Assembly: GCA_048885535.1 (NCBI GenBank)
Contig: JBHLLO010000022.1
Span: forward strand, 1 to 42,781
Length of the DNA: 42,781 nucleotides
Source: Candidatus Hermodarchaeota archaeon
GTDB lineage: Archaea; Asgardarchaeota; Lokiarchaeia; Sigyniarchaeales; SOKP01
Direction: 5' to 3'
Positions 331 to 32,588 of the stretch are shown here, in pieces; positions within the stretch are counted from its first letter, which is position 1, and each line of letters opens with the position of its first letter. The position numbers and the translations under genes are program-made. The notes under the pieces are model-generated. The model did no database searches. It saw only the letters and a program-made list of their open reading frames with translations, and was not told where the DNA came from.

Positions 331-462
331 GGGCCTGTAGATCAGTGGAAGATCATTGATTTGTATTCAACAAATTAACCTTAAGCTTGACGCATTGTAA
401 GCAATTTGCTTGGTGCAAGTCTTGCACTCAAGAGGTCACGGGTTCAATTCCCGTCAGGTCCA
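331..462 (+). tRNA. tRNA-Ala(TGC) with two introns (355-384 at 25/26; 392-421 at 32/33)
   Basis: Acceptor GGGCCTG/CAGGTCC+A with the G3:U70 Ala identity pair; D stem GATC/GATC; after removing both introns the anticodon arm is CTTGA-CT-TGC-AC-TCAAG; T arm ACGGG-TTCAATT-CCCGT; both introns fold into BHB-type motifs. Confidence 0.92.
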
Positions 463-537
463 TTTTTTAACTAATTTAAAAATCCTTAAAAAATCAATCA
501 ACTTTAAGTAAAGTTATAGATTTTTTAAAATGAAAAT

Positions 538-708
538 ATGTTGAAAATAATGAGTATTTTAGGTATTTTTGAAACTATATTATTATACATTTTTCAAGCA
601 GATTTATCACCAGAACAGGAATCTTTTATTTTTATTGTAGTTATTTTTGGAATTATTCTACTAATCATAATTTTAATATATATTTTGGTAACTTCAAGAA
701 AAGAATAA
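538..708 (+). CDS. Putative small membrane protein (56 aa), not in the ORF track
   Basis: ATG..TAA ORF MLKIMSILGIFETILLYIFQADLSPEQESFIFIVVIFGIILLIIILIYILVTSRKE; strongly hydrophobic C-terminal helix followed by a basic tail; fills the gap up to the convergent GTPase gene. Confidence 0.5.
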   Translation: MLKIMSILGIFETILLYIFQADLSPEQESFIFIVVIFGIILLIIILIYILVTSRKE

Positions 709-711
709 TTC

Positions 712-1923
712 TTATTTACCCGTAACTATTTTGATAACATCATTATGTTTTAATATATAATTTTCTCCCAATCTTTTTTTAGTTATACCATGAATCCCAA
801 ACATAAATTTAGTAGCTAAATCTGTGTGAATCTTATCTTGAACAAAATCTTTTAAAAAAGTCCCTTGCTTAACAAGAAAAACATCAGGTAATACATTGCC
901 ACTATTATCAGTAAAATTGTTAATATCAGAAACAGGATAGACACATATTTGTTTTGCTATTTCAAAAACAGCATAATTTAAAGCTTTTTGGACTCCAGTT
1001 TCACCAAATCCATTAAGAATCTTAATTTTTATCTTTTCCAATGTTTCAGTTTCTTTTAAAGTCAGTTTTTCTTCTTTTAATATTTGAAATTTATCTGAAC
1101 CGGGGATATAGTCAATGCTTTTATCCTCATGAAAGGTCCTCAGAAAATATTCTGTTAAGGCACTACAAGGAATAATAGGTTTTGAATATTTTTCCTTTAG
1201 TTTCATATAATTATCTAAACCGTTTTCTTTGTCAATTTTATTCGCGACAACTAGAATAGGTTTTGAAATTTCTCTTAATGTTTTTGAAAAATGATATAAC
1301 TCATCATCTATCCAATCTGATGGACTTTTTTTTTCCAGTCCAGAATTTTTTAGAGCAATACTTATTTGCTCCATTTTAACCCTCACGCCAGACAATCTTT
1401 TATATAAAGCTTCAATAAATTTTCCTTTCTCTCGCGAATATGTTTTTAAAAATTTTGTCCAATCGCTTCTTTCAAGAATTTCCTTAAACCACAGGTTTAT
1501 TTCCCTCTCAAGGAAGATGACATCTTCATATGGGTCATTTTCTCCCGTTTGTATTCTTTTTCCCATTTTATCTAAAGAACCAGATATATCTAAAATATGT
1601 AATAGTATGTCTGCTTTACTTAAATCATTTAAAAACTTATTTCCTAAACCCTTTCCTTTATGAGCATCTGGTACAAGTCCTGCAACATCTAATAAATTAA
1701 TAGGGATAAATCTTCTTCCTTCAATACATAAGGAATTTATTGGATTATCTTTTACACTTAAATTTTTGCATAAACAATCTGACTTAACGTAGGCAACTCC
1801 TTTATTAGGATCTATAGTAGTAAAAGGTAATTCACTTACCTTTGCATTAGTTAAACAAGCGGCGTTTAAGAATGTGGATTTACCAGCACTAGGTTTCCCT
1901 ACAACGCCTATTATCAATGTCAT
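712..1923 (-). CDS. ychF: Obg-family translation-associated GTPase/ATPase (archaeal YchF/Ygr210 type)
   Basis: GKPSAGKST P-loop, PFTTIDPN switch I, DVAGLVP..G.GLGNKFL, ANKID, and a C-terminal TGS-like IHTDL...DVIKI segment. Confidence 0.9.
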   Translation of the reverse strand: MTLIIGVVGKPSAGKSTFLNAACLTNAKVSELPFTTIDPNKGVAYVKSDCLCKNLSVKDNPINSLCIEGRRFIPINLLDVAGLVPDAHKGKGLGNKFLNDLSKADILLHILDISGSLDKMGKRIQTGENDPYEDVIFLEREINLWFKEILERSDWTKFLKTYSREKGKFIEALYKRLSGVRVKMEQISIALKNSGLEKKSPSDWIDDELYHFSKTLREISKPILVVANKIDKENGLDNYMKLKEKYSKPIIPCSALTEYFLRTFHEDKSIDYIPGSDKFQILKEEKLTLKETETLEKIKIKILNGFGETGVQKALNYAVFEIAKQICVYPVSDINNFTDNSGNVLPDVFLVKQGTFLKDFVQDKIHTDLATKFMFGIHGITKKRLGENYILKHNDVIKIVTGK

Positions 1924-1954
1924 TAAATTATGATAAGATTTGTTCTCTTAAAAT

Positions 1955-3685
1955 TTATTTGTTCTTATTTTGTAAATCATATAAATTTTTAATGTATTCT
2001 TGAAGGATTTTCTGTTCCGATTGATCCTTTTTAAATAAGTTATTATATTCTTCCTTTTGAACATCTTTTAGTTTAATGGTTTTTAATCTCGAAATGAAGT
2101 TATACTTTAAAAATAAAATTAATCTCTTTATAACAATCTTTAGAGTCACTCTTCTTTTTCCTATTTCTCCTTTTGCTTTTAAGTCATTGGAATTTTCTAA
2201 TTTCTTCAAAATTGAATCATTTCTTCTATGAATTTCTGATACAGAGAGTTGATTATGCTTAATGAAAGGAACCCAAAGCAAAAAAGGGTCTTTTATTGAA
2301 TTAATACGCACTAAACAATTCCCCTCATCTAAAACTGATAAAAAATTCTTTTTATCTTCATCTAAATTCAACAATTCCAGCATTAAGTCTTTTTGTAGAT
2401 GACTTTGAAATGAAATTAATACTCCACAATTCGCTAATATCTCATTACTAATATTTGGACGTGTTGCTAAAGATATAAGACATTCTCCAGTTCCTCTTTG
2501 TAAAAGGGCAATATCTTCAAGATAAGATGTTATCTTTAATTTTTTGGATAAATCTTGAGGAGCAAAATATTGAGCATCTTCTATGATTGTAATATGTTTA
2601 ATTCCATTATATTTATCAGCTCCGGTAGTTATATTTAGGTCCCATAAATATTTCAAAATCATATTAAGAAAGAAAAGGGCATCTTCTTTTTCTCCTCCTA
2701 GACGAATTATTGAGCTAAGATCAAGTAACACATTCATAGATAGCAATTTGCATATCGAAATTTCATTCCTAGATTCAAATATTTTTTTTAGGGGTCCGTT
2801 TGAAAATCTTCTAATTCTATTTTTGATAGATATTAACGTTTGCTTTAACATTGGAATCGAAGTTTCATTTTTCTTTAAATATTCATCACATAATCTAAAA
2901 AATCCATTCCAATTTTGCAATTCTTTACTTTTACAAACTTTAATTAATACTTCTACCAATACTTTTTCCATTTGTGGGCTAAAATCAGCATTATCATCTA
3001 AAAATTTCCCACTTTTAAGGATATCAAAAATCCTTTCTGCGTGTATTAAGGGATTGGAATTTTCTGGATTAAAAATATTAATGGAAAAGTTCTCTCCAGG
3101 CCATAATACTAATGTGTTTTTTATTTTTTCTTGAAGAAAGTGATATTCTCCCTTAAATTCAACCAAAAAAAAAGGGATTTCATATAATTTTGTAAAATTT
3201 ATAAGGAAATTTTGCATGAAATTACTCTTACCTGTGCCCGTTGAGCCACATATAAACATATGTTTTTCTAAATCTTTGAGAGAAAGTAAAAAATCAAAAT
3301 TCATTGAAGAAGTTTTTATAACTTTCCCAATTTTAATTGTTCCTTTTCTTGCTCTAAAAAATGAAGGAGCGTTTAATCTTATTATATTATTATCTGTGTG
3401 AATATGGGATGCAAAAAAAAAAATACTAGAAATTCCAAAAAATAAGATCGAAAGATTGAATATTGAAATTCGTCCGATATTATCCTCAAGAGTTTCTAAA
3501 ATGTGATTTGATTCCAATATTATGAAATAAGTGATTTCATATATAAAAAAAGCCAGTAATACAATAAAGAGAGAATAAATTATAGGTTTTAAAATAATTA
3601 AAGAAGAACCTTTCTTTTTATATAAATAGTTAGTAATATTAATTATTAGATTAATAATATTGAAAATGAAATAAACTAAAAGCAT
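1955..3685 (-). CDS. HerA/FtsK/VirB4-like (DUF87) ATPase with N-terminal transmembrane helices
   Basis: About three hydrophobic N-terminal segments; HMFICGSTGTGKS Walker A; VEFKGEY motif; IIEDAQ Walker B variant; ILANCG motif typical of the HerA clade. Confidence 0.75.
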   Translation of the reverse strand: MLLVYFIFNIINLIINITNYLYKKKGSSLIILKPIIYSLFIVLLAFFIYEITYFIILESNHILETLEDNIGRISIFNLSILFFGISSIFFFASHIHTDNNIIRLNAPSFFRARKGTIKIGKVIKTSSMNFDFLLSLKDLEKHMFICGSTGTGKSNFMQNFLINFTKLYEIPFFLVEFKGEYHFLQEKIKNTLVLWPGENFSINIFNPENSNPLIHAERIFDILKSGKFLDDNADFSPQMEKVLVEVLIKVCKSKELQNWNGFFRLCDEYLKKNETSIPMLKQTLISIKNRIRRFSNGPLKKIFESRNEISICKLLSMNVLLDLSSIIRLGGEKEDALFFLNMILKYLWDLNITTGADKYNGIKHITIIEDAQYFAPQDLSKKLKITSYLEDIALLQRGTGECLISLATRPNISNEILANCGVLISFQSHLQKDLMLELLNLDEDKKNFLSVLDEGNCLVRINSIKDPFLLWVPFIKHNQLSVSEIHRRNDSILKKLENSNDLKAKGEIGKRRVTLKIVIKRLILFLKYNFISRLKTIKLKDVQKEEYNNLFKKDQSEQKILQEYIKNLYDLQNKNK

Positions 3686-3916
3686 TTTACCTATTTATAT
3701 ATTGAGTTTTTTAAACTACACTTAAAGTTTATAATTTCATTCTGAGTTTAACGTTCAGAGTGCCTAAACATGAAATATTGAAAGCATTATTCTTCTCTTA
3801 TTTATATTAAGTCAATTTTAGTTTTAATTCCGTAAACTTTTTTAATTTTATGACTTAGAGATCATTATATATATAAAATATAAAAACTAGTCAAAGTTAA
3901 CTAAACGTGAATTAAA

Positions 3917-5521
3917 ATGGCTCAATTATCAGGAGTCCCTATCCTTATTCTAAAAGAGGGAACTGAAAGAAAAAGGGGCAAAGATGCCCAAAAAAATAAC
4001 ATAAGTGCTGCTAAAGCAGTATCCGAGGCTGTTAGAACAACATTAGGCCCAAAAGGTATGGATAAAATGCTTGTTGATTCTCTTGGTGATGTGACAATAA
4101 CTAATGACGGAGCAACTATTCTAGACACTATCGATGTTGAACATCCTGCAGCAAAAATGATGGTGGAAGTAGCCAAAACACAAGATGAGAAAGTAGGAGA
4201 TGGTACTACCACCAGTGTGATTATTTCTGGAGAATTGTTAAGTTTAGCACAAGAGTTAATGGAACAAGCAGTTCATCCGACTATTATATTCCGCGGATAC
4301 AGAAAAGCCTTAGTAAAAGCCAAGCAGATTCTCAAGGAGTTAGCTACAAATATTGATATAAATGACAAAGACATCCTGAAAAAGGTGGCAGAAACTTCAA
4401 TGAATAGTAAATTGATTTCTAGCGCAAAAAATCATTTTGCAGATATTGCAGTTAAAGCAGTCATCCAGATTAAGGAAAGTAGAGGAGATAATATATACAT
4501 AGATTTAGATCAAATTCAAATAATCAAGAAAGAAGGTAAAAGTTTGTTAGACACGAATATTATTGACGGAATTATTGTTGATAAAGAAGTTGTACATCCT
4601 ATGATGCCTAAATTAATTAAAAATGCTAATATCGCCTTAATAGATTCAGCTTTAGAAATAGAAAAAACAGAATTTGATGCTGAGATAAGAGTTCAGACTC
4701 CAGATCAAATTAATAAATTCCTTGAGGAAGAAGCAAATATGTTAAAAAGCAAAGTAGCGAAATTAAAGGAGATTGGAGCTAATGTAATTTTTTGTCAGAA
4801 AGGTGTCGATGATAAAGCTCAAAACTTCCTCGCGCAAGCAGATATAATAACTGTTCGCAGGGTTAAAAAATCAGATATGGAAAAACTAGCAAGAGCGACA
4901 AATGCTAAAATTGTTAATAATTTAACTGAGATTTCCACAAATGATCTTGGAAAGGCTGGAAAGGTTGAAGAAAGAAAGATTGGGGATGACAATATGATCT
5001 TTGTCTCTCAATGTGCTGATCCAAAAGCTGTAAGCATCTTGATAAGGGCTGGAATAGAACATGTAGTTGATGAAGCGGAAAGAATGTTAAATGATGCATT
5101 ATCAGTAGTAAAGGCTTCTATGGAAGTCCCATATGTCTTAGCTGGAGGAGGTGCTGCTGAAATTGAATTAGCAAAAAGATTAAAATCTTTTGCTAGCTCA
5201 ATTGGTGGAAGAGAGCAATTAGCAATTGAAGTTTATGCAAATGCTTTAGAAATTATCCCTAAAACCTTAGTTGAAAATGCTGGTTATAATCCAGTAGATT
5301 TGCTTGTTGAATTAAGATCTAAACATGAGTCAGACAATGGGCGTAATTATGGAGTAAATATTGATTTGGGTAAACCAGATGATATGATGGAATTAGGAAT
5401 AATTGAACCATTATCAGTTCTAACCCAAGCTATTCAGTCAGCGACAGAGGTTGCATCAATGATATTAAAAATTGACGATATAATAGCCGCGTCAGGACTT
5501 TCTAAAAAGAGCGAAGATTAA
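3917..5521 (+). CDS. ths: Thermosome subunit (group II chaperonin)
   Basis: [34 protein letters not shown] and ILKIDD motifs. Confidence 0.97.
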
Positions 5522-5563
5522 TCTCCTTTAATATTTTCTTTTTATTCTTTTTTTTTAAAAAAG

Positions 5564-6031
5564 TTAAAAATTATTTAATAATTTGAATTGACTTCCCCAC
5601 GAGAATTTTGAAAGGATTAAATCAGCCAAATCACCAAAATTAGTAATATATAATGCAGCAGCTAATGCCTCTACGGAACTCAGCTTTTCCCATTTACCAT
5701 AGTTAATTGGGTTACTAGCTATGAGAGGAGGCAATTTTCTTTGATTTTTAGTCTCTATCATTTGTAAATTTAAAATCTTATTCCAAGAACAATCAATAAC
5801 AATTAAACCATAATTTAAAATAATTGATCTATCACTAAGGCTTATTAACGTCTTGGAAAAAGGATTTAAAAAAATCCCATTTTTTAGACTTCCTTTTACT
5901 TTTCTTTTTATATTTAAAAGCCTGTACTTCTTTAACTTTAAGGAAGTACATTTTTTTGGATCACAATCATCATAGTGTATACAATAAAGTTTTGGAAAAA
6001 CTAAATCTGAATTATTCATATATGAAAACAT
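5564..6031 (-). CDS. tsr3: SSU rRNA aminocarboxypropyltransferase Tsr3 (DUF367)
   Basis: CDPKKCTS, IDCSW, RKLP.L.A.NPINYG, KLSSVEALAAAL and FSWG motifs. Confidence 0.93.
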   Translation of the reverse strand: MFSYMNNSDLVFPKLYCIHYDDCDPKKCTSLKLKKYRLLNIKRKVKGSLKNGIFLNPFSKTLISLSDRSIILNYGLIVIDCSWNKILNLQMIETKNQRKLPPLIASNPINYGKWEKLSSVEALAAALYITNFGDLADLILSKFSWGSQFKLLNNF

Positions 6032-6052
6032 TCTTTTGTTTTAACAAAAAAT

Positions 6053-7051
6053 TTAATCATATCGAGAACTAGTTAAAACATTAATTGATTTAATAAAATG
6101 TTCTGTGATTGGTTCTGATCCTATAATCTTTAATATCGAAAAAATAATATTTCTTGATTCGCACATAATAGGAATTCCTCCATAAGTTAAGCTGAATAAA
6201 CCTATAAAAGAAATATCTTGAATATTAAGATTGTTTTCGCTTTCAGAATACTTTAATCTACCTGAAGGACAAGTTATAATGCCATAAAAATTATTTGGAT
6301 CAAAACCTGAAATTGCGACGTAGCATAGAAGTTCTCCTAAGGAACTTCCAGCAGATTCCTCCTTCATTTTTTGAAAAGCTACATTAGCATTAGCTGAAAA
6401 GGCCTCAACTGAAATTGGTAATTCTTGTCCTGAGACTTCTCGAGCATCTAATGTTAACCCATTTGGGCTTACTAAACTATACCTGATATAAATTGGATTT
6501 TGAAGTGAATCTAAAATATAACTTATTGCGGGTAATAAATTTGTTTGGTCAAAATTTTCTGGAGAATAAGACATAAATGGAACTTCAGAACCCATACTAA
6601 ATAAATAAATAGCACTTCTTACTTTATTGGAAAATAGTTCAAGTTCTCCTTCTTTTTCTGCTTTATTGCCAAAGAACTCTCCTAATTTTTGTTTTAAATA
6701 ATACATGGAACTCGCAAGGTTATCCGCATCTAATGGCCATTCATTATGATAATTATGTACAATTGTAAGAAGAGTTTCGTTAATTTTAATCGTAATTAAG
6801 CATATTTTTTCAAAGTAAGTAAAGGAAATTACTTGATCTTTTATATTTAAATCATTCCAATTCTCTTCGCTTGCTGAGAAAGCTGCTGATGCTAAACTTG
6901 TTATCTGATTTGGATTTATTTCAATATCACTTTTCCTACCAATTTTTGCTATAGAGAGTCCATTTAAATCACATAATATAACTAGTATTGTTCCCTGGGA
7001 TGCTCTTAAAATTGAGGTTAAATATTTTATTAGAGAATCTCTTACACTCAT
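6053..7051 (-). CDS. Tandem Roadblock/LC7 (MglB/LAMTOR-like) domain protein
   Basis: Two repeats of the Roadblock pattern: helix, then VILCDLNGLSIA / YSLVSPNGLTLD, then a long helix (ITSLASAAFSASE / FSANANVAFQ), then three strands. Confidence 0.75.
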   Translation of the reverse strand: MSVRDSLIKYLTSILRASQGTILVILCDLNGLSIAKIGRKSDIEINPNQITSLASAAFSASEENWNDLNIKDQVISFTYFEKICLITIKINETLLTIVHNYHNEWPLDADNLASSMYYLKQKLGEFFGNKAEKEGELELFSNKVRSAIYLFSMGSEVPFMSYSPENFDQTNLLPAISYILDSLQNPIYIRYSLVSPNGLTLDAREVSGQELPISVEAFSANANVAFQKMKEESAGSSLGELLCYVAISGFDPNNFYGIITCPSGRLKYSESENNLNIQDISFIGLFSLTYGGIPIMCESRNIIFSILKIIGSEPITEHFIKSINVLTSSRYD

Positions 7052-7239
7052 TAAATAAATACCAATCTTTTTTATCTTAATCCATTGCTATTACTTGTTT
7101 TAATAACAATAATATTAATTCTTAAATATTTCTAATTTTTAATTTTATGTATCATTTTAGTTTTTATACCCGTTGATGTAAAAATTTAATAAATCTTTGC
7201 AATTTCTATTATTAAGTGTTTATAATCCTAAAACTTAGA

Positions 7240-7324
7240 GCGGGAATCGCCAAGTTTGGTCAAAGGCGGTGGACTTAGAATCCATTCTCGTAGGAGTTCG
7301 GGAGTTCAAATCTCCCTTCCCGCA
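7240..7324 (+). tRNA. tRNA-Leu(TAG), intronless
   Basis: GCGGGAA/TTCCCGC+A acceptor; anticodon arm GTGGA-CT-TAG-AA-TCCAT; long variable arm; T loop TTCAAAT. Confidence 0.96.
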
Positions 7325-7479
7325 TTAGAAAAAATCATTAATTTTTAGAAAATTGATACATGAGATTTAAGCACTCACGGTTTCTATTATAAAAAAATTT
7401 AAAATTAAAAATTAATTAGATTAAAATACTTAGAGCTATTTTGAAAACTTTTAAAGAAAAAAATGAAGGAAGAATTATC

Positions 7480-7585
7480 GCTCCTGTAGTGTAGTCCGGC
7501 CAAGCATACGGGGCCTTCACCCCCGCGACTTACGGACGCATATTTGCGGCCGTACGCGACCCGGGTTCGAATCCCGGCAGGAGCA
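7480..7585 (+). tRNA. tRNA-Glu(TTC) with an intron at 48/49 (7530-7560) and atypical C33
   Basis: GCTCCTG/CAGGAGC+A acceptor; anticodon arm CGGGG-CC-TTC-AC-CCCCG; 31-nt insert with central helix CGCG/CGCG, bulge ACT and intron stem TACGG/CCGTA; T arm CCGGG-TTCGAAT-CCCGG. Confidence 0.88.
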
Positions 7586-7673
7586 TTAAAAACTCCTTCT
7601 TTATAATTTAAAAATCCTAAACTATATTATTTCCATTTAAAAAGCAAGAAAAAAGATATGAGTTAATAATTAA

Positions 7674-7825
7674 CGCCCCGGGCATGGTTTTCGTTCCACT
7701 AGAACCTAAATGGAAAATCGAACATGCGACCGCCCGGTTAACTTCCGGAGGTATAATGAAAATTACCTTAGCCGGGTGCTTTTGGCACACCGAAGCAGTG
7801 CTCTACCTAACTGAGCTACCGAGGC
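7674..7825 (-). tRNA. tRNA-Asn(GTT) with three introns (~7780-7801 at ~23/24; 7743-7769 at 33/34; 7688-7716 at 59/60)
   Basis: Minus strand GCCTCGG/CCGGGGC+G73; spliced anticodon arm CCCGG-CT-GTT-AA-CCGGG; spliced T arm GCATG-TTCGATC-CATGC; BHB-type central helices GGTA/TGCC, CCGG/CCGG and TTCG/CGAA. Confidence 0.9.
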
Positions 7826-7999
7826 AAGATTCGGGGGTTTTATATATTTCTTTTTGTATAATAAAAGGTATTAAAACTCCTTTTTAGGTTTTTCGCTAAG
7901 TTAAATTATTCATTACTTTTAATTTTAAAATGGGATTTTTTATCTAAAAATAATAAAATCTGAGATTGAATCATGGATAATTAGGAATAACTAAAGCAA

Positions 8000-8530
8000 T
8001 TAAGTTTCAGCTTGACTTGCATAATATATTAACCATTTTGCCATGGCTTGGAAGGATTCATTAACATTAATGTTTTCTTTTGAAGAACAGAATACACACT
8101 GATTACATTTTGATTCTCCAGCATAACTATTAGCTATATCATAATGGACTTCATGATTAGCTAAATCCCACTTCATTCCTAAAAGAATAATTGGAATAAA
8201 TCCCGCCTTTTGCCGAATTATCCTTAACCATTCAGGTATTTCTCTAAATGTATCATAATCTGTTATATCGAAACAAATAAACGCCCCGCTTGCACCCTTA
8301 CAATAGTCTGGCAAAAGTTCTCGAAAACGTTTTTCCCCTGCAAAATCCCACAATTGCATTTTCACAGCCTCTCCGGTATCAAGAGTCTCAGATTTTGTGT
8401 GAAATCCAGCTCCTATTGTCATTTTATATCCCTCTTCAAATTTTCCGGTGCAATAACGCGTAACCATAGCAGTTTTACCTACTCCTCCCGCTCCTGCTAT
8501 AATTACCTTAAAAATCCATGAACTAAACAT
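8000..8530 (-). CDS. Rab-like small GTPase (Ras superfamily, eukaryotic signature protein)
   Basis: FKVIIAGAGGVGKT, Y..TIG..F, KMQLWDFAGEKRFR, FDIT; G4 variant MKWD; G5 CSSK; no C-terminal prenylation motif. Confidence 0.92.
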   Translation of the reverse strand: MFSSWIFKVIIAGAGGVGKTAMVTRYCTGKFEEGYKMTIGAGFHTKSETLDTGEAVKMQLWDFAGEKRFRELLPDYCKGASGAFICFDITDYDTFREIPEWLRIIRQKAGFIPIILLGMKWDLANHEVHYDIANSYAGESKCNQCVFCSSKENINVNESFQAMAKWLIYYASQAET

Positions 8531-8714
8531 CTTAACCCGATCTAAGAAGAATTAATTTAATTATAATAAGAAAGAATTTATTTTTATAATCTTCTTTAAA
8601 ATTTCGAAATAAAAATCTTATTTGAAAGTAATCTATTTGAAAATAAAAAAAGATTTTTATAAGATTTTATTCTATTATTTTGTATACTTTACAATATTAA
8701 ATTTTCAATATAAA

Positions 8715-8723: not shown

Positions 8724-8732
8724 AAAAAAAGT

Positions 8733-9074: not shown

Positions 9075-9134
9075 AAATATTTTATTTGAAATTCAAGCCA
9101 AATCTTCTATAATAATACAAATCTTCAAGCTTCA

Positions 9135-17625: not shown

Positions 17626-17781
17626 GCAGAGATAACCAAGCCAGGTCAAAGTATAACTCTCATTTGTTTGAATGAGATCTATGCGCCGATCGGTGATGGA
17701 CTCAAGATCCATTGTCACAGGACTGCGGGGGTTCGAAAAATTCCTCGTTCTATCGAAGATTCGAAAATCCCCCTCTCTGCA
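17626..17781 (+). tRNA. tRNA-Leu(CAA) with two introns (~17650-17690 in the D loop; 17738-17767 at 59/60)
   Basis: GCAGAGA/TCTCTGC+A; anticodon arm ATGGA-CT-CAA-GA-TCCAT; long variable arm; T-loop BHB TTCG/CGAA with bulges AAA and AAT; D-loop insert folds with GTATA/TATGC and TCTCATT/AATGAGA stems. Confidence 0.9.
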
Positions 17782-23878: not shown

Positions 23879-24259
23879 CTCTAAATCATCTATTAATTTC
23901 CTAAAATCATCATCATCGAATTCAACTTCTTTATATATTTCTAAAGTTTCACTAATGATTTGAGCTAAGATATGCTTACAAAAAACTCTCTTTCTTTTTA
24001 TAATTACACTCTTATAAAAATCTTGACAAGAACAATATAATTTTGGATAAATTATATGTTCACAATTTTCTCCTAAAGCTATCCAAACACATCGATTTGA
24101 TGGTTTATAGATATATTTAAAAATGCCTTTATTCAATACTTCAATAACTTTTTCAGCTTTATTTGGAAATATCTTCTCTAAAGAATTAATTAATTCTGTC
24201 TTATTCTTTCCTTTTTCCTTGATACTACCATAGAAATTACTAAAAAAATTATTAGTCAT
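23864..24259 (-). CDS. SWIM zinc-finger protein
   Basis: YCSCQDF-x11-CKHILA. Confidence 0.85.
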   Translation of the reverse strand: MTNNFFSNFYGSIKEKGKNKTELINSLEKIFPNKAEKVIEVLNKGIFKYIYKPSNRCVWIALGENCEHIIYPKLYCSCQDFYKSVIIKRKRVFCKHILAQIISETLEIYKEVEFDDDDFRKLIDDLELKFK

Positions 24260-24299
24260 ATATATTTCATATTATTAGTAGTAATAATTAGTAATAAGG

Positions 24300-25598
24300 A
24301 TGATTAATTTGAGTAATATTTTATATTTACCAACAAGATACTATCCAGCAATTTCAGGAGCAGAATTTTATATACAAAATATGGCTGAGATATTAACCTT
24401 TAAATACAAACAAACAATTGACATTTTCACATCAGAAGGAATAGATTTTAGAAGTCTAAGAGACTCAAAAGGTAAAAGCATTACAAAAAATAATAAATTG
24501 TATGCAGATGTAAATAAATTGAGAATCAATCGTTTTTCTATAAATTATAATCTCTCATTAACTGAGAAAATTAAAATGGTTGAAACTATCAATCAATATA
24601 AGAATTTGAAAATTACTCAGAAATCCTTATTAGAATATATAAAAAATGGACCTTTTTCATCTGACTTAATTGAGTATTTTCAAAACAATAAAAATGTAAA
24701 ATATGACTTAATTCATACTACTTTTTATCCCTACTTTAACCTTATAACTAGTTTAATTATAGGAAGAATTCTTCAAAAGCCTGTAATTTGTACACCCTTT
24801 TTTCATTTTTCAAATCCTCGTTATTTAAATTCCGATTTACTAATTGCCTTAAAAAAATTTGACAAAATAATCGCATGTACTAACTTAGAAAAAAGAAATT
24901 TAATAAAGTTATTAGAGATTCCCGAAACAAGGATAGAAGTTATTCCGATGGGGGTAGATTATAACAAATTTAATTATAATATCAAAAATAACAAGAAAGG
25001 TTACAACTTTAAACAAAATTTTTTCAAAAATGGTGAAAAGAAATACAAAATGGTACTTTTTTGTGGATATAAAAATTATGAAAAGGGAGCAATTTCAATC
25101 TTAAAGGCGATACCACTTATTACTAAAAGATTAAATAAAGTCTATTTTGTATTTATTGGACCTTCTACTATGGCTTTTAATCGAGAATTATCAAAAATAC
25201 AAAAAATATATAATATAAGGATTTTAAATTTTACACCGGATAATCTTACGGGATATTATGATAAGAAAAAGATAGCTGCTTTCAAAGAGGCGGATGTCTA
25301 CTTGATGCCTAGCAGAAGTGATGCTTTTGGAATAGCATTTTTAGAGGCTTGGGCTTCAAGAAAGCCAGTCATTGGAGCAAATATTGGTGCCACCCCTGAA
25401 ATAATAAGAAATAATTTCAATGGATTGTTAGTTGAATTTGATAATCCTAATGAGATTGCAGATAGAGTGATTTATCTTCTAAAAAGAAAGAGGAAAAGGA
25501 ATAAGTTAGGCTTACAAGGTCAGAAGATCGTAATTAAAAATTACAGTTGGGAAGAAGTAGCTAGAAAAACTAATGAACTTTATAGAAAATTAATTTAA
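24300..25598 (+). CDS. Glycosyltransferase family 4 (GT-B)
   Basis: YYPAISGAE, VIPMGVD, EKG, PSRSDAFGIAFLEAWA..KPVI. Confidence 0.92.
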   Translation: MINLSNILYLPTRYYPAISGAEFYIQNMAEILTFKYKQTIDIFTSEGIDFRSLRDSKGKSITKNNKLYADVNKLRINRFSINYNLSLTEKIKMVETINQYKNLKITQKSLLEYIKNGPFSSDLIEYFQNNKNVKYDLIHTTFYPYFNLITSLIIGRILQKPVICTPFFHFSNPRYLNSDLLIALKKFDKIIACTNLEKRNLIKLLEIPETRIEVIPMGVDYNKFNYNIKNNKKGYNFKQNFFKNGEKKYKMVLFCGYKNYEKGAISILKAIPLITKRLNKVYFVFIGPSTMAFNRELSKIQKIYNIRILNFTPDNLTGYYDKKKIAAFKEADVYLMPSRSDAFGIAFLEAWASRKPVIGANIGATPEIIRNNFNGLLVEFDNPNEIADRVIYLLKRKRKRNKLGLQGQKIVIKNYSWEEVARKTNELYRKLI

Positions 25599-25612
25599 TT
25601 GGGAAAAACAAA

Positions 25613-26833
25613 ATGAAAAAAATTGCTGGTAATCCATATTTAATTAAGCAAGGAGAAAAATTAACAATAGACTCAATAGAAATATCTGAGATGTTAAAGA
25701 GGTCAAAAACACCCTTTTTTATATTTATAGAAGATAGGATTAGAGAAAATGTCAGAAATTTCTCCAGGGTCTTTAAATCCTTGTTTAATAATACTCAAGT
25801 ATTTTATTCATTTAAAGCTAACTTTCTTCCAGAAATATGCAAGATAATTCAGTCTGAGGGAATGGGGGCTGAATTAGTTGGATTACCAGAGCTAAAACTA
25901 GCTTTAGAAATTGGATTCTCTCCAGAAAAAGTTATTATTGGAGGTCCTTACCTAACTAAAGAACTAATTGAAATAAGCATAAATAAGGAAGTAAAAGAGA
26001 TTGTTGTATACGATTTAAAGTATCTTAAGAAAATAAATGATATTGCTCAAAAATTAAATAAAGTACAGGAAGTATGTTTGAGAGTTAGATCCCAAAAATA
26101 TGCTAGTAAATTGGGTATTGTACTAACTGAAAATATTTTAACTCAATTAAAGAAATATGAGAAGAATTTCAAAAACATCAGCTTAAGTTCCATTTTATCC
26201 CACTATACTACTCAAATGAATAGCCTAGAGCAATTTAACAAAAATATATTAAGTTTAGTTAATAATTATAAAAAACTTTCGCAGAAAGGAATAGATATAA
26301 AAAATATAAATCTTGGTGGTGGATTTCCTGAGGCTTCTATTATGTCAGAGCAAGAGTTAATGAAAGTGGCTCTTAACATAAAACAACAATTAATAGATTA
26401 TGATTTAGAAGGTAAGAAAATATATTTTGAACCTGGTCGATATTTTGTTGGAGATTCTGGAGTAATAATTGCTAAAATAATAAGGCACACAAACAATAGA
26501 TGGATTTTTTTAAACATTGGGAACCATATTTGCCCTAAATTTGCCAAAAATTCATTAAGATTTTATAATATATCACAAATTAATAAACCCCATAAATACA
26601 AAACTTCAATAGGAGGTATATTACCCTTAGATCAAGATGTATTGGCTAAAGATTATTTTTTTACTAAAGAGATAAATAATGGTGAATTTGTATTAATAAC
26701 CAATGTAGGTGCGTATACTCTTACTTTTTCTAATCGATTTCCTTACAGTTTGCCAAACATATTTCTTATAAAGGAAAAACACTTTAGACAAATTTTTAAT
26801 GTTGAATATGACCACGATTTCTCTTTGTTTTGA
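25613..26833 (+). CDS. Fold-type III PLP enzyme, diaminopimelate/ornithine decarboxylase family (atypical)
   Basis: TPFF, YSFKAN (PLP lysine), SKLG, INLGGGFP, FEPGRY, NVGAYT; lacks the usual CE..D cysteine motif. Confidence 0.75.
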   Translation: MKKIAGNPYLIKQGEKLTIDSIEISEMLKRSKTPFFIFIEDRIRENVRNFSRVFKSLFNNTQVFYSFKANFLPEICKIIQSEGMGAELVGLPELKLALEIGFSPEKVIIGGPYLTKELIEISINKEVKEIVVYDLKYLKKINDIAQKLNKVQEVCLRVRSQKYASKLGIVLTENILTQLKKYEKNFKNISLSSILSHYTTQMNSLEQFNKNILSLVNNYKKLSQKGIDIKNINLGGGFPEASIMSEQELMKVALNIKQQLIDYDLEGKKIYFEPGRYFVGDSGVIIAKIIRHTNNRWIFLNIGNHICPKFAKNSLRFYNISQINKPHKYKTSIGGILPLDQDVLAKDYFFTKEINNGEFVLITNVGAYTLTFSNRFPYSLPNIFLIKEKHFRQIFNVEYDHDFSLF

Positions 26834-26948
26834 AATCATGCCCTCATAATTTATTATTAGATTAGATAATACGTGAATAACATATGAATTCTAATTTTTT
26901 TGTTTTAATACTTCAGTAAGATAAAATTAAACTAAGGATAATTTATAA

Positions 26949-28055
26949 ATGGAATCGTTAATCAGAAATGCTCGGAAAAGGGAAACAATTAAGCCTATAA
27001 AGGAGAATTATGGGTATGCTAATATAAAGATTGTTGGCTGTGGTGGTGCAGGAAATAACACTATAGATCGTCTGATGAAGATCGGAATTAGAGGTGCAAA
27101 ATGTGTAGCTCTTAATACAGATTGTCAACATCTAGATATGGTTGAAGCTCATATAAAAATATTGATTGGAAAGAATTTAACTAGAGGATTAGGTGCAGGT
27201 GGAAATCCAGAAATAGGACGTGCCGCAGCAGAAGAATCAAGAGAAGATTTGACGAAAGTTTTAAGAGAATCAAACTTAGTGTTTATAACATGTGGAGAAG
27301 GTGGTGGAACGGGCACAGGAAGTGCTCCAATTGTTGCTGAGATTGCAAAGTTAGAGGGTGCAATTGTGGTTGGAGTAGTAACTCTACCATTTGATACTGA
27401 AATTGGTCGTATTGATAAAGCTCAAATAGGTTTAAATGAACTAAAGAATTATGCAGATACTTTGGTGGTTATTGATAATAACCGTTTGTTAGAAATTGCA
27501 CCAGATTTACCAATTATAGAGGCTTTTAGTGTGGCTGATGAAGTTTTAGCGACAATGGTTAAAGGTATTACTGAAACAATTTCTCTTCCATCGTTAATAA
27601 ATTTAGATTTTGCAGATGTCCGTACAATTTTAAGTACTGGAGGGGTAGCTATTGTTGGTGTGGGCGAATCTGGGGAGAGGGAAAATCGTGTGAGTGAAGC
27701 CATTGAAGATGCTCTTAGCTCTCCTCTGCTAGATGTTTCTATAGATGGTGCAAAAGGAGCATTAATCCATATTTGTGGAGGAAATGATATGACATTAGCA
27801 GAAGCAAATTCAGTAGCGAAAAAGATCACAGAGAAGATGGATGTAAATGATTCAATGGTAATATGGGGTGCTAGGGTAAACGACGAATATGATGGATATT
27901 TAAGAGTTATGCTTCTAATTACAGGAATCAAATCTCCTCAAATTTTTGGAAAAAGCAATGCTTATGAAGCCACAATTTCCAATAAACAAACGCCTAAGCA
28001 AAAAATTGGATTATCTGATGATATCTTCAATATAGGAGAAATAACTTTTGATTAA
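26949..28055 (+). CDS. ftsZ: Cell division protein FtsZ
   Basis: VGCGGAGNN, LNTD, GLGAGGNP, GGGTGTG, LINLDFAD (T7 loop), VIWGA. Confidence 0.97.
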   Translation: MESLIRNARKRETIKPIKENYGYANIKIVGCGGAGNNTIDRLMKIGIRGAKCVALNTDCQHLDMVEAHIKILIGKNLTRGLGAGGNPEIGRAAAEESREDLTKVLRESNLVFITCGEGGGTGTGSAPIVAEIAKLEGAIVVGVVTLPFDTEIGRIDKAQIGLNELKNYADTLVVIDNNRLLEIAPDLPIIEAFSVADEVLATMVKGITETISLPSLINLDFADVRTILSTGGVAIVGVGESGERENRVSEAIEDALSSPLLDVSIDGAKGALIHICGGNDMTLAEANSVAKKITEKMDVNDSMVIWGARVNDEYDGYLRVMLLITGIKSPQIFGKSNAYEATISNKQTPKQKIGLSDDIFNIGEITFD

Positions 28056-28458
28056 ATCAAATTTCATCACTCTTTATAAACTCCTTTCTATACATAATTG
28101 CATGGAATATAAATTTACTCCTTATATAGAGGATAATATCCAAAAATTATTATCTTATCTTGATGATTGGAAAGGACTATTTTCCATAAAATTGAATTAT
28201 TATGAAGAAGGATGGGCAATCTCTCTTAGAGAAAAAAGCATTTACGCCCGCTATATTGTTATCTTTAAACCATATGATTTGAATCAATATTCTCTTAAAA
28301 GTTTTGAAATTCATTTTGATATTAATAATAATGAAGCTCTAAGAGAAATTTATTTTAATAAGGATATCTATACCTTAAATGCGTTGTATACTGAAGTTAA
28401 AGAAGTTATTTTTGGGAAAGACATTGCTGATAAAATTTTAAGGGATTTTCATAAATGA
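28048..28458 (+). CDS. Hypothetical protein downstream of ftsZ
   Basis: ORF overlapping the ftsZ stop (TTG start; a later ATG is possible); no motif recognised. Confidence 0.6.
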   Translation: MIKSNFITLYKLLSIHNCMEYKFTPYIEDNIQKLLSYLDDWKGLFSIKLNYYEEGWAISLREKSIYARYIVIFKPYDLNQYSLKSFEIHFDINNNEALREIYFNKDIYTLNALYTEVKEVIFGKDIADKILRDFHK

Positions 28459-28513
28459 TTTATTCTTAAGTTAATTTCAGAACTCTTCTAAACTCAAAAC
28501 CTGAAGATATACG

Positions 28514-29071
28514 TTAAAATTCAGGTTTATACATTTTTCGGAATTCTTCCCTTTGTTTCTCATTATATTTTTTTTCTAAAAATCTTAATACAGTATGATG
28601 AGGGATTCCACTTAATAACATATTAATTGCTTTCCTAGCAACTTGTAAATTCTCATAATCTGCTATTATTGATATTGTTTTTCCATAAATGGAGACATAA
28701 CTTTCAGCATATCTTTCTATTGCTTTTCTCATCTCCCCATTTCTCCCAATTATTCTACCTTTTATTCTTTTTATTTTTTTTTCAGACTTTCCTAAGAGAT
28801 TATAAAGGTTAAATATCTCAAGATCATAAGTATCTTCAGTTAATTTCATTGCTTTGATAGGATTAAAACCTCTATTAATCGCCCTCAAAATTTTCTCTGC
28901 AGTGTAAACATTTAAAGGGTTATAATTGGGATTTTCTAACATAGGTTTAACTTCACAATCTCCTGTTTTACTGTCTAAAATAATTTTAACATTTAATTCA
29001 TCCTCTATCTTTTTCTTAGTCTCCCCATTTTTACCTATAATTACAGCAATTCTATTTTTTCCAATTTTCAT
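28514..29071 (-). CDS. KH-domain pre-rRNA processing protein (Dim2/Pno1)
   Basis: RIAVIIGKNG, AINRGF, RIKGRIIGRNG, G.PH..V; adjacent to RIO1. Confidence 0.92.
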   Translation of the reverse strand: MKIGKNRIAVIIGKNGETKKKIEDELNVKIILDSKTGDCEVKPMLENPNYNPLNVYTAEKILRAINRGFNPIKAMKLTEDTYDLEIFNLYNLLGKSEKKIKRIKGRIIGRNGEMRKAIERYAESYVSIYGKTISIIADYENLQVARKAINMLLSGIPHHTVLRFLEKKYNEKQREEFRKMYKPEF

Positions 29072-29081
29072 AATCTAATCC

Positions 29082-29915
29082 TTATTTAATTATTTCATAA
29101 TAAAAAGTTTCTAAATCTGGAATTTTAATTCCAAATCTTTTAAAATAATTGGAGACATTTTTAATATCTCTCACTAGAAAATTTTCTGCTTTCGGATGTT
29201 GAATATCTACAGCTTGAGAAATATCAATGAAAATGGGTTTCTGATTATGATATAAAATATTGAATTCTGATAAATCCCCATGGACAAGTTTAGCTTCTTT
29301 GTATAACCTTTTAATAAAATCAAAAACTTGTTCTAATAAACCTCTAGGGTCGTTCAACTTTTTGATATCTTTAAGTTTTGGAGCTGGGATAGATTGAAAT
29401 CCGATATACTCCATTATCAATATATTATTTTTAATGTGGATAGGCTTTGGTACACTTAATCCTTCTCTAAATGCTCTTTTGAGGTTTTTGTATTCTTTAC
29501 TTGCCCATAAAAAGATGATCTTTGAAGGATTATGAGGTACCTTCTTAAACCGAGGATCTCCGATGATATAATTATACATCCACTTTGATGTATTACTATC
29601 AATTTTATAAATTTTAACCGCAACTTCTAACCCTGTTTTATCATAAGCTAAATATATATTTGCTTCTTTTCCAGCTGATATAATTCCTTCAATCTTATCT
29701 AATGGACCACTAACTAATAATTTATTTAAATTGAAAATTGTTCTTTCATCAAATACAGATTCTACAGCAGCTCTCTTTTTTGTTTGATCAATTTTTTTAA
29801 TCCTTTTAAAATCGATATTCCTTTTTTCTAAATCATCTATTTTTGAGTTTACTCCATTTTCCGAAAAGTTATCATCATATTCCTCATCATTGTTCATGAA
29901 ATGCATCTCCTCCAA
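29082..29915 (-). CDS. rio1: RIO1 serine/threonine kinase
   Basis: ISAGKEANIY, AVKIY, YIIGDPRF, WASKEYKNL, LVHGDLSEFNIL, IDISQAV. Confidence 0.95.
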   Translation of the reverse strand: MEEMHFMNNDEEYDDNFSENGVNSKIDDLEKRNIDFKRIKKIDQTKKRAAVESVFDERTIFNLNKLLVSGPLDKIEGIISAGKEANIYLAYDKTGLEVAVKIYKIDSNTSKWMYNYIIGDPRFKKVPHNPSKIIFLWASKEYKNLKRAFREGLSVPKPIHIKNNILIMEYIGFQSIPAPKLKDIKKLNDPRGLLEQVFDFIKRLYKEAKLVHGDLSEFNILYHNQKPIFIDISQAVDIQHPKAENFLVRDIKNVSNYFKRFGIKIPDLETFYYEIIK

Positions 29916-30828
29916 TAATTTTAAAAAGATTTTTTTGATTAAAAAAAAAAGAATAACTTTTTACTAATTTGAGCCTATCCTCGCCTCTTAATACTATTTT
30001 ATTTCTAGTAATATTATCGATAATATATTTATGATTCTCAATTTCAATTATATCATTTTTTTTGAAAGGTAGAAATTTCACTAATGATTTTAATCTATAA
30101 ATGTTTTTACCTTTTTGGATATCTCTACCAACCAACTTTTTAGTTCTTTTTAAAATAAAATGATATTTATTTCTTAAATGTGAAATTATATGGTTCAATA
30201 GTTCATTTGTGCTTAACATGAGGTCTACACCATACTTTTGATCAACTATTTTTGAGATATACTCTTTCTTGTTTCTTTCAAATAATTTTTCAACATAAAC
30301 CTGAATATAATCCAATACTTCCTTAATTAAATCGAAATAACTTTCATTATTTACTCGTAATTGCAATATTGATAAAAAGTAAGTTCCTCCTCTCAAATTT
30401 GAGCAATTTTTACATAAATCATAATTAAGATTAATCTTTACTAGTTGCTCATAAAATATCTTTTCATCTTCTTTTAAATTTCCCTTTATATTTGCATCTA
30501 AAGAACTCAATAACCCCTTTGAAGAGTACTTAAAGCTATCATTATTATAATCGATAATAAAATTAATTTGCTCAGTTTTTAAATAATTTCTTAATAAGAA
30601 ACGAAGGATTGCATGTTCAATAATAATAAAAATATCATCTGTATCTACTTGAACCCATTCATCCTTTTTGGTATAGCTTCCACAGCCAAGGCAAACTTTA
30701 AAATTGAAATTAGAGGGAATCTCAAATAGCGGATGTTCTTTTAAAAAGCAAGAAAGACACATTCCAATATGAGGGGAATCATTTTTTATATCTTTTCCAC
30801 AAACAGCACAAAATCTATGAGGCATCAA
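29887..30828 (-). CDS. nmd3: NMD3-family large-subunit biogenesis protein
   Basis: FCAVCG..MCLSC, CLGC, CKNC...GGTYF.SILQLR, GVD, KLVGRD..KGK..YR. Confidence 0.9.
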   Translation of the reverse strand: MMPHRFCAVCGKDIKNDSPHIGMCLSCFLKEHPLFEIPSNFNFKVCLGCGSYTKKDEWVQVDTDDIFIIIEHAILRFLLRNYLKTEQINFIIDYNNDSFKYSSKGLLSSLDANIKGNLKEDEKIFYEQLVKINLNYDLCKNCSNLRGGTYFLSILQLRVNNESYFDLIKEVLDYIQVYVEKLFERNKKEYISKIVDQKYGVDLMLSTNELLNHIISHLRNKYHFILKRTKKLVGRDIQKGKNIYRLKSLVKFLPFKKNDIIEIENHKYIIDNITRNKIVLRGEDRLKLVKSYSFFFNQKNLFKIIGGDAFHEQ

Positions 30829-31121
30829 AACATCATCTTTAAAGCCATAGGGACCCCATTTATTAAACGAACACCCTCTTCTGGAAGGATTCGTTCTTTA
30901 ATTATTATATTAATAATATTTTTTCCAACAATATTAAAATAAGAGGCATCTTTCAAAATTTCTATAGCATCTGTAATATCAATAAGATTTCCCCCAAAAA
31001 AGGGTTCATTAATTTCAATTCTTAAATTTCCTTCTGTAAAACTCTGATTTAATAATGATTCATCACAACATGCTACAATCTCAATTCCATTTCTAGAATG
31101 AATCTTTATATAAACTTTCAT
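30825..31121 (-). CDS. DUF424 family protein
   Basis: IVACCD..LL..., FFGG, NIVG, INGVP.A; typical position between aIF2-beta and NMD3. Confidence 0.87.
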   Translation of the reverse strand: MKVYIKIHSRNGIEIVACCDESLLNQSFTEGNLRIEINEPFFGGNLIDITDAIEILKDASYFNIVGKNIINIIIKERILPEEGVRLINGVPMALKMMF

Positions 31122-31130
31122 AACCTAACT

Positions 31131-31553
31131 TTACTTTTCTTTTATTTCTTCTCTTGCTCCACAAGCGGTACATTTAAGAAATTCTTTTTTAGCTTCACGC
31201 TGAATTTGTGTATCAGGTTTATTACAAATTTTACATAAAACATATGTCCTCGAATATTGTTCAATAAGTCTGTTAAGAACTTGTTCCTTATAGGTACCTT
31301 TTAAGAAGAGTTGTTGTCCTCGAATTTCACCCATAGTACCTGCTTTTCTTAGAAATACACCTAAAAAATGACGCCTATCTCGGTTTAGGGTATTAATAAT
31401 CCGATTAAAATTTATAATATACGTATTTTTTGACTCTATTCTAATTTGTACCTTTGGAATCTCAAATCTAGAGAGTTTCTTTACATTCTCTGGTATATCT
31501 TCATATGCACTTTCAAGAAGTTTTTCATAATCATGTAGATCCATTTTTATCAA
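31131..31553 (-). CDS. eif2b: Translation initiation factor aIF2 subunit beta
   Basis: YEKLL..AY, RFEIP, LNRD..H, YVLCKICNKPDT, LKCTACGA. Confidence 0.95.
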   Translation of the reverse strand: MIKMDLHDYEKLLESAYEDIPENVKKLSRFEIPKVQIRIESKNTYIINFNRIINTLNRDRRHFLGVFLRKAGTMGEIRGQQLFLKGTYKEQVLNRLIEQYSRTYVLCKICNKPDTQIQREAKKEFLKCTACGAREEIKEK

Positions 31554-31657
31554 CCAAAATCATATTCAATATATAAATTAATATTTCTTTCAAAAAAATT
31601 TTTGCTGTTTTAAAAAAAGATTTTTTCAATTCATAATGAATAATCTAATGAATTAAT

Positions 31658-32347
31658 TTAAGGTAAGTATGATTGGTAAAAGTTTTCCTCAGATTGATAA
31701 ATTTTTGATTCAATTTCTAATTCTCTAATGTGCCTCCTTAATTTTTCCTCAGGAATCTCCATTATTCGCATTAAATTTCTAAAACTTATCCCCCTTTCAG
31801 TTTGAGAAAACTTTTCAATTACAGAAAAAACACTTTCTTTGACTTGATTTTTTTCATTTACATGTTGTTCTAGAAATGATAAATCTGCATCTAAATCCTC
31901 ATTTTCTTCAATAAGTTTGACTTTCACTTTATTTATAATTTCAGCATTTCTCAGTAAAATCATATTTGGATTTCCTACTTTATTCATAACTTCTAGAGAA
32001 ATCGTGAGGTTGTCATACTTATAGTTAATTAAACCAATAATATCAACCAAATCACCTTTCTCAAAAATCTTATAGAATTTAGGGTTAGCATCCCATTTAT
32101 TTACTTGTATTAAACTTGTCCCATCATCCAAACCAAATTCTATTCGTATACGAGTGTCGTTAGAGTTTTGAGTACTTACATTTATCTTTTTTTCAATAAT
32201 AGTACCAAGGATTCGAACCCTCTTTGTATAGCCAAAAATTGTTTTCAACATATTTTTTTCCGATGAAAATTGCGCTTCAACAAGATGTTTAATCCAGCAT
32301 CGAATTGCAGGTAATCTTTTTCTTGTCATCTCACTCATCAAAACCAC
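31658..32347 (-). CDS. RPA2/RPA32-like OB-fold protein with C-terminal winged helix
   Basis: KRVRILGTI, LDDGTSLI...W, GDLVDIIG OB fold; C-terminal GISF..L...IRELE.ESKIYQ winged-helix pattern. Confidence 0.8.
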   Translation of the reverse strand: MVLMSEMTRKRLPAIRCWIKHLVEAQFSSEKNMLKTIFGYTKRVRILGTIIEKKINVSTQNSNDTRIRIEFGLDDGTSLIQVNKWDANPKFYKIFEKGDLVDIIGLINYKYDNLTISLEVMNKVGNPNMILLRNAEIINKVKVKLIEENEDLDADLSFLEQHVNEKNQVKESVFSVIEKFSQTERGISFRNLMRIMEIPEEKLRRHIRELEIESKIYQSEENFYQSYLP

Positions 32348-32452
32348 TTAAAAAGAGAATTTAAAATTTATAAAAAATATAGGTTTTCAGAAATATAGAT
32401 TTATCTATTAAAAGATAAACATCTTCCTAATCTACTTTTAAAGAAAAACAGA

Positions 32453-32588
32453 TGGTAGCGGGGGTTCGAATTTCAGCTTGTTGGAAACCAACCTTCTTGC
32501 TTTTGAACGAACGATCTCAGGGTTTCTCTAAGGGGTAGAGATGCCATATATGAGCCCTGCGGCATAAACCAGGCTAGCCCACCCCGCT
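32453..32588 (-). tRNA. Initiator tRNA-Met(CAT) with two introns (32524-32548 at 37/38; 32470-32501 at 59/60), CCA encoded
   Basis: A1:U72 (AGCGGGG/CCCCGCT-A-CCA); anticodon stem CAGGG/CCCTG with three G:C pairs; T-loop BHB TTCA/TGAA with bulges AAA and ATT. Confidence 0.92.

Follow-up and report, generated by a model that had tools for sequence, protein, structure and literature searches.

Ten probable bulge-helix-bulge-type introns in five tRNA genes of a Lokiarchaeota-type Asgard archaeon

On a 42,781-nt stretch of archaeal DNA, short inserts, ten in all, break up five of the six tRNA genes, which raises the question whether such genes can still yield functional tRNAs and by which route the inserts would be removed. 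The stretch (the window, positions 1-42781 of contig C22) belongs to a metagenome-assembled genome (MAG), here called G000, which comprises 3.09 Mb on 112 contigs and is estimated to be 91.6% complete, with a contamination estimate of 1.88%. We consider it probable, at roughly 88%, that the genes are functional and separately transcribed, that they belong to a Lokiarchaeota-type Asgard archaeon, and that the ten inserts are protein-spliced introns of the bulge-helix-bulge (BHB) type.

Ten inserts in five tRNA genes

The G+C content of the window is 26-33%, and the tRNA genes were located as GC-rich islands in A+T-rich sequence together with a scan for acceptor and T-arm pairing. Six genes were found, for Ala(TGC), Leu(TAG), Glu(TTC), Asn(GTT), Leu(CAA) and initiator Met (iMet). 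All except tRNA-Leu(TAG) are interrupted, by inserts of 22-41 nt, nine of which lie at non-canonical positions; the one insert at the canonical site is iMet 37/38. When the ten inserts are removed in silico, ARAGORN with introns off recognizes five full-length cloverleaves with the expected anticodons. The initial annotation had proposed ten BHB-type introns in five of six tRNAs, nine of them non-canonical, and these spliced cloverleaves as well as the junctions defined by orthologs agree with it; the positions it named and its size range of about 20-41 nt also hold.

The tRNA-Ala(TGC) gene (331-462, + strand) matches the Rfam tRNA model with 45.5 bits and a 63-nt unaligned insert. Its spliced form is a 72-nt Ala(tgc) according to ARAGORN and contains G3:U70, the expected identity mark. 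Intron 1 (355-384, +; 30 nt, 25/26) shows a relaxed BHB with three of four central pairs, an intron helix of 9 bp by the count of our script and an exon helix of 2 bp, and intron 2 (392-421, +; 30 nt, 32/33) has the canonical centre CTTG/CAAG. The tRNA-Glu(TTC) gene (7480-7585, +; Rfam 47.9 bits), which ARAGORN reads as a 75-nt Glu(ttc) after splicing, contains a single 31-nt intron (7530-7560, +) at 48/49, the border between variable region and T-stem, with the canonical centre CGCG/CGCG and a 5-bp intron helix.

The remaining three interrupted genes were detected by the acceptor/T-arm scan. tRNA-Asn(GTT) (7674-7825, - strand; spliced form Asn(gtt) by ARAGORN) harbours three introns. The first, of 22 nt in the D-arm (7781-7802, -), has three of four central pairs in the register that gives an ortholog-like D-arm, and this register is ambiguous (22/23 to 27/28 are equivalent) because five bases repeat. 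The second, of 27 nt at 33/34 (7743-7769, -), has the canonical centre CCGG/CCGG and a 5-bp intron helix, and the third, of 29 nt at 59/60 (7688-7716, -), a full hBHBh' motif, TTCG/CGAA, with the T-stem as outer helix and an intron helix of 7 bp. tRNA-Leu(CAA) (17626-17781, +; spliced form 85 nt, Leu(caa) by ARAGORN) has a 41-nt insert in the D-loop (17650-17690, +) without a canonical BHB, where two of four central pairs form and a shift of the 5' cut by one base would raise this to three, and a 30-nt intron at 59/60 (17738-17767, +) with a full hBHBh' motif, TTCG/CGAA, again with the T-stem as outer helix.

The initiator tRNA-Met(CAT) gene (32456-32588, - strand, or 32453-32588 with the encoded CCA; spliced form Met(cat) by ARAGORN) carries the identity marks of an initiator, namely A1:U72 and three G-C pairs at the base of the anticodon stem. 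Its intron 1 (32524-32548, -; 25 nt, 37/38) has a relaxed BHB with three of four central pairs, a weak intron helix and the anticodon stem as outer helix; intron 2 (32470-32501, -; 32 nt, 59/60) shows a full hBHBh' motif, TTCA/TGAA, with the T-stem as outer helix. The 3' CCA of this gene is encoded at 32453-32455 (-), and among the iMet genes of congeners some end in CCA and others do not. A TATA-like A/T box can be read directly in the sequence about 22-37 nt upstream of each tRNA gene of the window.

Junction motifs and chance expectation

Cut sites were assigned by one rule, according to which the last six bases of the exon consist of a 4-nt helix strand with two bulge bases, and those of the intron of the complementary strand, again with two bulge bases. 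This rule could be fixed because the Asn 33/34 junction was checked against the intronless ortholog of a congener (G003), whose anticodon loop it reproduces. At six of the ten ortholog-defined junctions (Ala 32/33, Glu 48/49, Asn 33/34 and the three 59/60 introns of Asn, Leu-CAA and iMet) all four central pairs are present together with a flanking helix. These six form the textbook arrangement, a 4-bp helix with two 3-nt bulges on opposite strands and a predicted cut after the second bulge base. Three further junctions (Ala 25/26, Asn D-arm, iMet 37/38) form three of four pairs in the centre and the last one has two, in line with the earlier description of a mostly recognizable 4-bp helix with several relaxed motifs.

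Strict enumeration of BHB motifs within these genes gives many chance matches. At the ten inserts, each compared with 2000 local shuffles, the observed BHB score is reached by at most 4 shuffles in nine cases. The initial observation is correct and well above chance.

Conservation of the motif across orthologs was assessed for the Ala 32/33 intron. In 13 ortholog sequences all 52 cells of its central helix are paired, and all intron-side changes within this helix are wobble-compatible, while the inner hairpin shows a compensatory switch from a GC to an AU pair in four sequences. Overall 99% of the cells are paired, compared with 21-50% when the partners are slid against each other. RNAalifold applied to this region gave the mature anticodon stem and not the BHB, and the BHB pairs were then counted explicitly.

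Intron states in related genomes

Each of the five interrupted genes was searched against 40 relatives, 24 of them from the same genus, and the matches were parsed. The tRNA-Asn ortholog of G003 is intronless, that of G002 contains only the 59/60 insert, and those of other congeners contain three to five inserts. Among 25 other iMet sequences three (G003, G030, G039) are intronless, the 37/38 insert occurs in 18 and the 59/60 insert in nine, in patchy combinations. The joined exons of the window iMet gene are identical to the intronless G003 gene. For tRNA-Ala(TGC) the 32/33 insert is present in all 12 congener orthologs and the 25/26 insert in none. The Glu 48/49 insert is absent from all 19 other Glu genes of the relatives, and the syntenic ortholog of G013 combines identical exons with a 35-nt insert in the D-loop in place of the one at 48/49; because the flanking spacers are well diverged, this is a difference between species. 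Inserts in the D-loop of tRNA-Leu(CAA) occur at the same site in eight congener genes, and the 59/60 insert of this gene is shared only with G021 and G019. Since these orthologs are intronless or interrupted elsewhere while their exons are conserved, the junctions are fixed without reference to a splicing motif. This pattern of constant exons and inserts that come, go and drift is the hallmark of genuine introns in genes that function.

Several points weigh against the reading of the inserts as spliced introns. None of the 11 sequencing runs listed for this sequence is of RNA, so splicing, the cut sites and expression are all things that we infer. The BHB score of Leu-CAA intron 1 is reached by a fraction of 0.0575 of the shuffles and is thus no better than chance. 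According to the available part of a preprint on Asgard tRNA introns (bioRxiv 10.64898/2026.10.13.758758), three-of-four motifs are common by chance, by a figure which allows for a window of +/-3 nt, and given this warning the three 3-of-4 junctions carry little weight when taken alone. A shift by one base on each side gives the Asn D-arm insert a better motif, with four of four pairs, and would leave two bases too many. ARAGORN is permissive and accepted several wrong splice combinations in a genome-wide trial. Finally, with a MAG that is 91.6% complete, intronless copies may lie in the missing part.

The incompleteness of the genome and the four relaxed motifs are also what could favour a reading of the interrupted genes as decaying pseudogenes with intact copies elsewhere. 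The exons are, however, perfectly tRNA-like, to the point of identity in the case of iMet and G003; most congeners have interruptions in these genes too, and about 74% of the credible tRNA loci of the genome are interrupted as well. Moreover, the initial annotation had named intact intronless copies elsewhere as what would speak for pseudogenes, and searches of G000 with each gene turned up none of the five isoacceptors a second time, so that the genes described here are the only copies recovered. We regard pseudogenes as very improbable and working genes with introns as the better explanation.

The different intron states could also have arisen in the computer. Contig sets of metagenomic DNA from four runs of one study (X1-X4) were compared with the window, and the sample clearly holds several related strains, as other intron states of tRNA-Glu and tRNA-Ala are found on contigs of the same runs, a situation in which assembly or binning might create artificial inserts. 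Against this, contigs over this stretch come from all four runs, albeit of a single study, homologous inserts occupy the same sites in congener genomes from other assemblies, and the inserts form specific motifs with their own exons. An artefact is in our opinion the least probable explanation of all, and we continue to treat the inserts as introns.

In the same comparison, contigs of X2 and X3 depart from the window in tRNA-Glu at positions 7523-7555 and 7502/7503: one form lacks exactly the 31-nt 48/49 insert, and one metagenome contig has a 33-nt D-loop insert, like that of G013. As the differing forms occur in the same samples, the sediment harbours close relatives that differ in their intron states.

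The initial annotation had assumed a burst of intron gain in this lineage. The orthologs do not support a single burst: all 12 congeners have Ala 32/33 and none has Ala 25/26, Glu 48/49 is missing from all 19 other genes, and the iMet and Asn introns are distributed patchily. This mix of old shared, genome-specific and patchy introns points to a probable history of continued gain and loss, as far as the comparison of sequences can tell. The same gene being intronless, singly or multiply interrupted in congeners provides natural experiments which are usable to study how tRNA introns arrive.

Neither do the ten introns appear to have been copied within the genome. A blastn-short search of G000 found no convincing second copy of any of them, all matches below an E-value of 0.01 being self-matches; the best non-self match covers 20 nt with an E-value of 0.017. 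The Ala(CGC) genes of G018, G019, G003 and G023 (L121, L122, L124, L126) contain inserts at 24/25-25/26, the same place as the 25/26 insert of the window Ala(TGC) gene, and by eye these inserts have a similar A/T-rich start and AA end. An intron transfer between Ala isoacceptors, hinted at by the likeness of the G003 and G023 inserts to Ala 25/26, was considered and dropped, as blastn-short does not support it.

Inserts in the D-arm

The two D-arm inserts, Asn 7781-7802 and Leu-CAA 17650-17690, fit the BHB rule least well, and one could ask whether they are ordinary substrates of the splicing endonuclease EndA at all. They might be cut in other registers that give slightly different D-loops, they might require the prior removal of other introns, or a different mode of recognition might use a conserved hairpin. 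Neither insert has a 4/4 centre at its ortholog-defined junctions. When the insert-bearing Asn genes were folded with RNAfold, the conserved 3' part of the D-arm insert paired with the 3' exon in 12 of 12, which is not a BHB arrangement, and the preprint (10.64898/2026.10.13.758758), in its available part, reports canonical motifs in only 33% of D-arm inserts. On the other hand, G007 and G003 carry orthologous D-loop inserts in Leu-CAA at this very site, with a perfect centre of 4 bp and with the expected D-loop as the product, so this site is spliceable by the normal route, and according to the accessible text of PMC5829648 relaxed motifs are tolerated by an EndA that has the crenarchaeal loop. 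We consider it rather unlikely that these inserts fall outside the ordinary EndA substrates, and we retain them among the BHB-type introns.

An extended reading would join these D-arm inserts to the turnover within the genus. The genus would swap intron positions while the exons remain identical, as for Glu 48/49 and the D-loop insert of G013 with both DNA forms in one sediment, and gain would be ongoing; the D-arm inserts would constitute a separate class with conserved hairpin pairing to the 3' exon and no clean BHB, whose removal or role in folding lies outside the textbook two-bulge rule. As a whole we think this combination doubtful. If gain is indeed ongoing, it could be caught in the act.

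The tRNA-Asn genes of congeners (L086-L096) contain up to five inserts, including a second one in the D region and another within the T-stem, in its 3' strand (about 63/64), and the hairpin core of the D-arm insert is conserved in all of these genes. In G012 a 9-nt direct repeat stands on either side of the Asn D-arm insert.

Splicing machinery

G000 encodes two EndA paralogs of 200 aa (alpha, contig C6) and 205 aa (beta, contig C1), both with the profiles PF01974 and PF02778, which cover the N- and C-terminal EndA domains. Residues 22-200 of EndA alpha align with the catalytic subunit of Aeropyrum pernix (3p1z_B, E-value 3e-35) and share the context of the Tyr/His/Lys residues. In the N-terminal loop region the alignment is gapless with the A. 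pernix alpha subunit, with which a Lys-Pro-Arg is shared, and has a 3-residue gap with the subunit of Pyrobaculum aerophilum (2zyz_B). This loop corresponds to D34-A46 of P. aerophilum and is required for activity according to the accessible part of Yoshinari 2009 (PMC2724299). EndA beta has an Ala at the position of the catalytic His of the Methanocaldococcus jannaschii enzyme and is, among the matches listed, closer to the EndA proteins of M. jannaschii and Methanopyrus kandleri than to any crenarchaeal chain. By its sequence the pair is of the predicted (alpha-beta)2 pattern with a loop of the L1 or crenarchaeal type, one catalytic and one putatively non-catalytic paralog.

Asgard archaea have an EndA type with an L1 insert which is linked to a broad substrate range, according to the available text of Kaneta 2018 (PMC5829648). 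The permissive EndA of the initial annotation thus stands, as far as the genes tell, in that the predicted enzyme (two paralogs, crenarchaeal-type loop) is of the type credited with broad specificity; the single burst of gain proposed along with it is not supported. The genes for RtcB and Archease are adjacent on opposite strands and convergent (contig C2, 49044-50792).

From these genes we infer that the mechanism is the ordinary archaeal one. On the basis of what is known about archaeal tRNA splicing, the pre-tRNA would fold so that each border between exon and intron forms a BHB motif, and an (alpha-beta)2 EndA would cut both bulges, the crenarchaeal-type loop on its catalytic subunit being credited with the tolerance of relaxed motifs. 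RtcB with Archease would then join the exons and would probably circularize the introns. This tolerance would be needed at the four relaxed junctions (Ala 25/26, Asn D-arm, iMet 37/38, Leu-CAA D-loop), whose exact cuts are putative.

Comparison with other archaea

EndA alpha has 101 relatives in species-representative genomes. The best 80 are nearly all titled as MAGs of Promethearchaeota or Promethearchaeia, with few other Asgard labels. Promethearchaeota, of which we take Lokiarchaeota to be the old name, holds only the class Promethearchaeia in the NCBI taxonomy. By its EndA relatives G000 thus groups with Promethearchaeota (Lokiarchaeota) MAGs, unlike the published focal Asgard families.

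Work by Sugahara in 2008 and Fujishima in 2010 reportedly described the multi-intron tRNAs of Thermoproteales, and the initial annotation regarded such tRNAs as best known from this order. Judging from the available accounts, Thermoproteales and the present genome are alike in their multiple non-canonical BHB introns and in an EndA with the crenarchaeal loop, which is heterotetrameric in Thermoproteales and here predicted from the genes. They differ in that introns of Thermoproteales, in the same accounts, recur as related copies across tRNAs by transposition, whereas here none of the ten has a convincing second copy. With regard to the enzyme, the (alpha-beta)2 structures of A. pernix (3p1z) and P. 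aerophilum (2zyz) share with G000, known from sequence alone, the two paralogous genes, the Tyr/His/Lys of alpha and the aligned loop; the beta subunit differs from the crenarchaeal systems, being nearer to M. jannaschii and M. kandleri EndA among the matches listed.

Naming Thermoproteales as the best-known case is out of date, since the same phenotype has been published for Asgard archaea. In Atabeyarchaeia and Freyarchaeia 92-95% of the tRNA genes have introns and over half of them several (Valentin-Alvarado 2024, PMC11291895, in its available part). The preprint already mentioned (bioRxiv 10.64898/2026.10.13.758758) covers 90 Asgard genomes; its available text gives 2.2 inserts per gene for the focal families and 0.91 outside them, with 58% canonical BHB motifs and with D-arm inserts which are often missed and have weak motifs; it describes recent gains as repeated, sees no copying of introns and finds a two-subunit EndA to be widespread. 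As far as the available parts of these two sources go, the multi-intron tRNAs of Atabeyarchaeia, Freyarchaeia and Jordiarchaeia resemble those of the window in having several short, mostly non-canonical inserts per gene, with weak motifs in the D-arm and strong ones in the T-arm, and the share of canonical BHB motifs is similar (six of ten compared with 58%). Patchy gain and loss, the absence of paralogous intron copies and many genes missed by annotators are likewise common to both. The burden of G000 is lower, at a rough 1.1 inserts per gene and 74% interrupted genes, compared with 2.2 and 97% in the published focal families. The phenomenon is therefore, on the evidence of these sources, already published for Asgard archaea, and this genome is a further case. 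With it, a Lokiarchaeota-type genus joins the Asgard lineages whose tRNA genes are heavily interrupted; the word Loki is absent from the main text of the preprint as available, and its supplementary genome list may include this genus.

Genome-wide tRNA set and annotation

Merging our own scan with Rfam and ARAGORN gave 49 loci in G000, of which 42 were judged credible; seven weak loci found by a single method were dropped (C8:5-62, C10:51370, C25:34546, C26:31556, C40:13765, C64:10607, C103:2346). About 31 of the 42 are interrupted (74%) and 11 are not. Around 11-12 loci exceed a compact tRNA by at least 43 nt and probably contain two or more inserts, four of them in the window. BHB-guided splicing combined with ARAGORN over 40 loci of the genome was too noisy for an exact count of introns, so the burden is only estimated from gene lengths, at about 1.1 inserts per gene, which is to be read as a minimum and not as a precise count.

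Standard annotation was expected to miss these tRNAs, and it does. ARAGORN reports one of the six genes of the window, and Rfam finds two at the gathering score and three at E-values up to 10. With its intron option ARAGORN misnames Ala as Lys(ttt) and Glu as Arg(acg), and the genes for Asn, Leu(CAA) and iMet escape it. The uninterrupted tRNA-Leu(TAG) (7240-7324, +) is found by ARAGORN and matches Rfam with 57.6 bits. The tRNA sets of such MAGs are badly under-called or mis-called by simple annotators, which distorts inferences on completeness and codon usage.

The window starts with the 3' end of a 16S rRNA gene (1-71, +; Rfam SSU match of 58.6 bits, model positions 1463-1533). No 23S rRNA match is present anywhere in the 42.8-kb window, and 16S and 23S therefore appear to be unlinked here. 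The tRNA-Ala gene at 331 begins 260 nt downstream of the 16S 3' end and is followed by protein-coding open reading frames.

Elsewhere in G000, ARAGORN calls a tRNA-Sec(tca) on contig C73 (9476-9568, -; Rfam tRNA match of 34.6 bits), which suggests the use of selenocysteine. Two intronless tRNA-Cys(gca) genes (C2:86649, C65:8067) and two intronless tRNA-Arg(tct) genes (C30:35276, C52:21464) are also present; these duplicates may be true paralogs or may stem from contaminating contigs of a relative.

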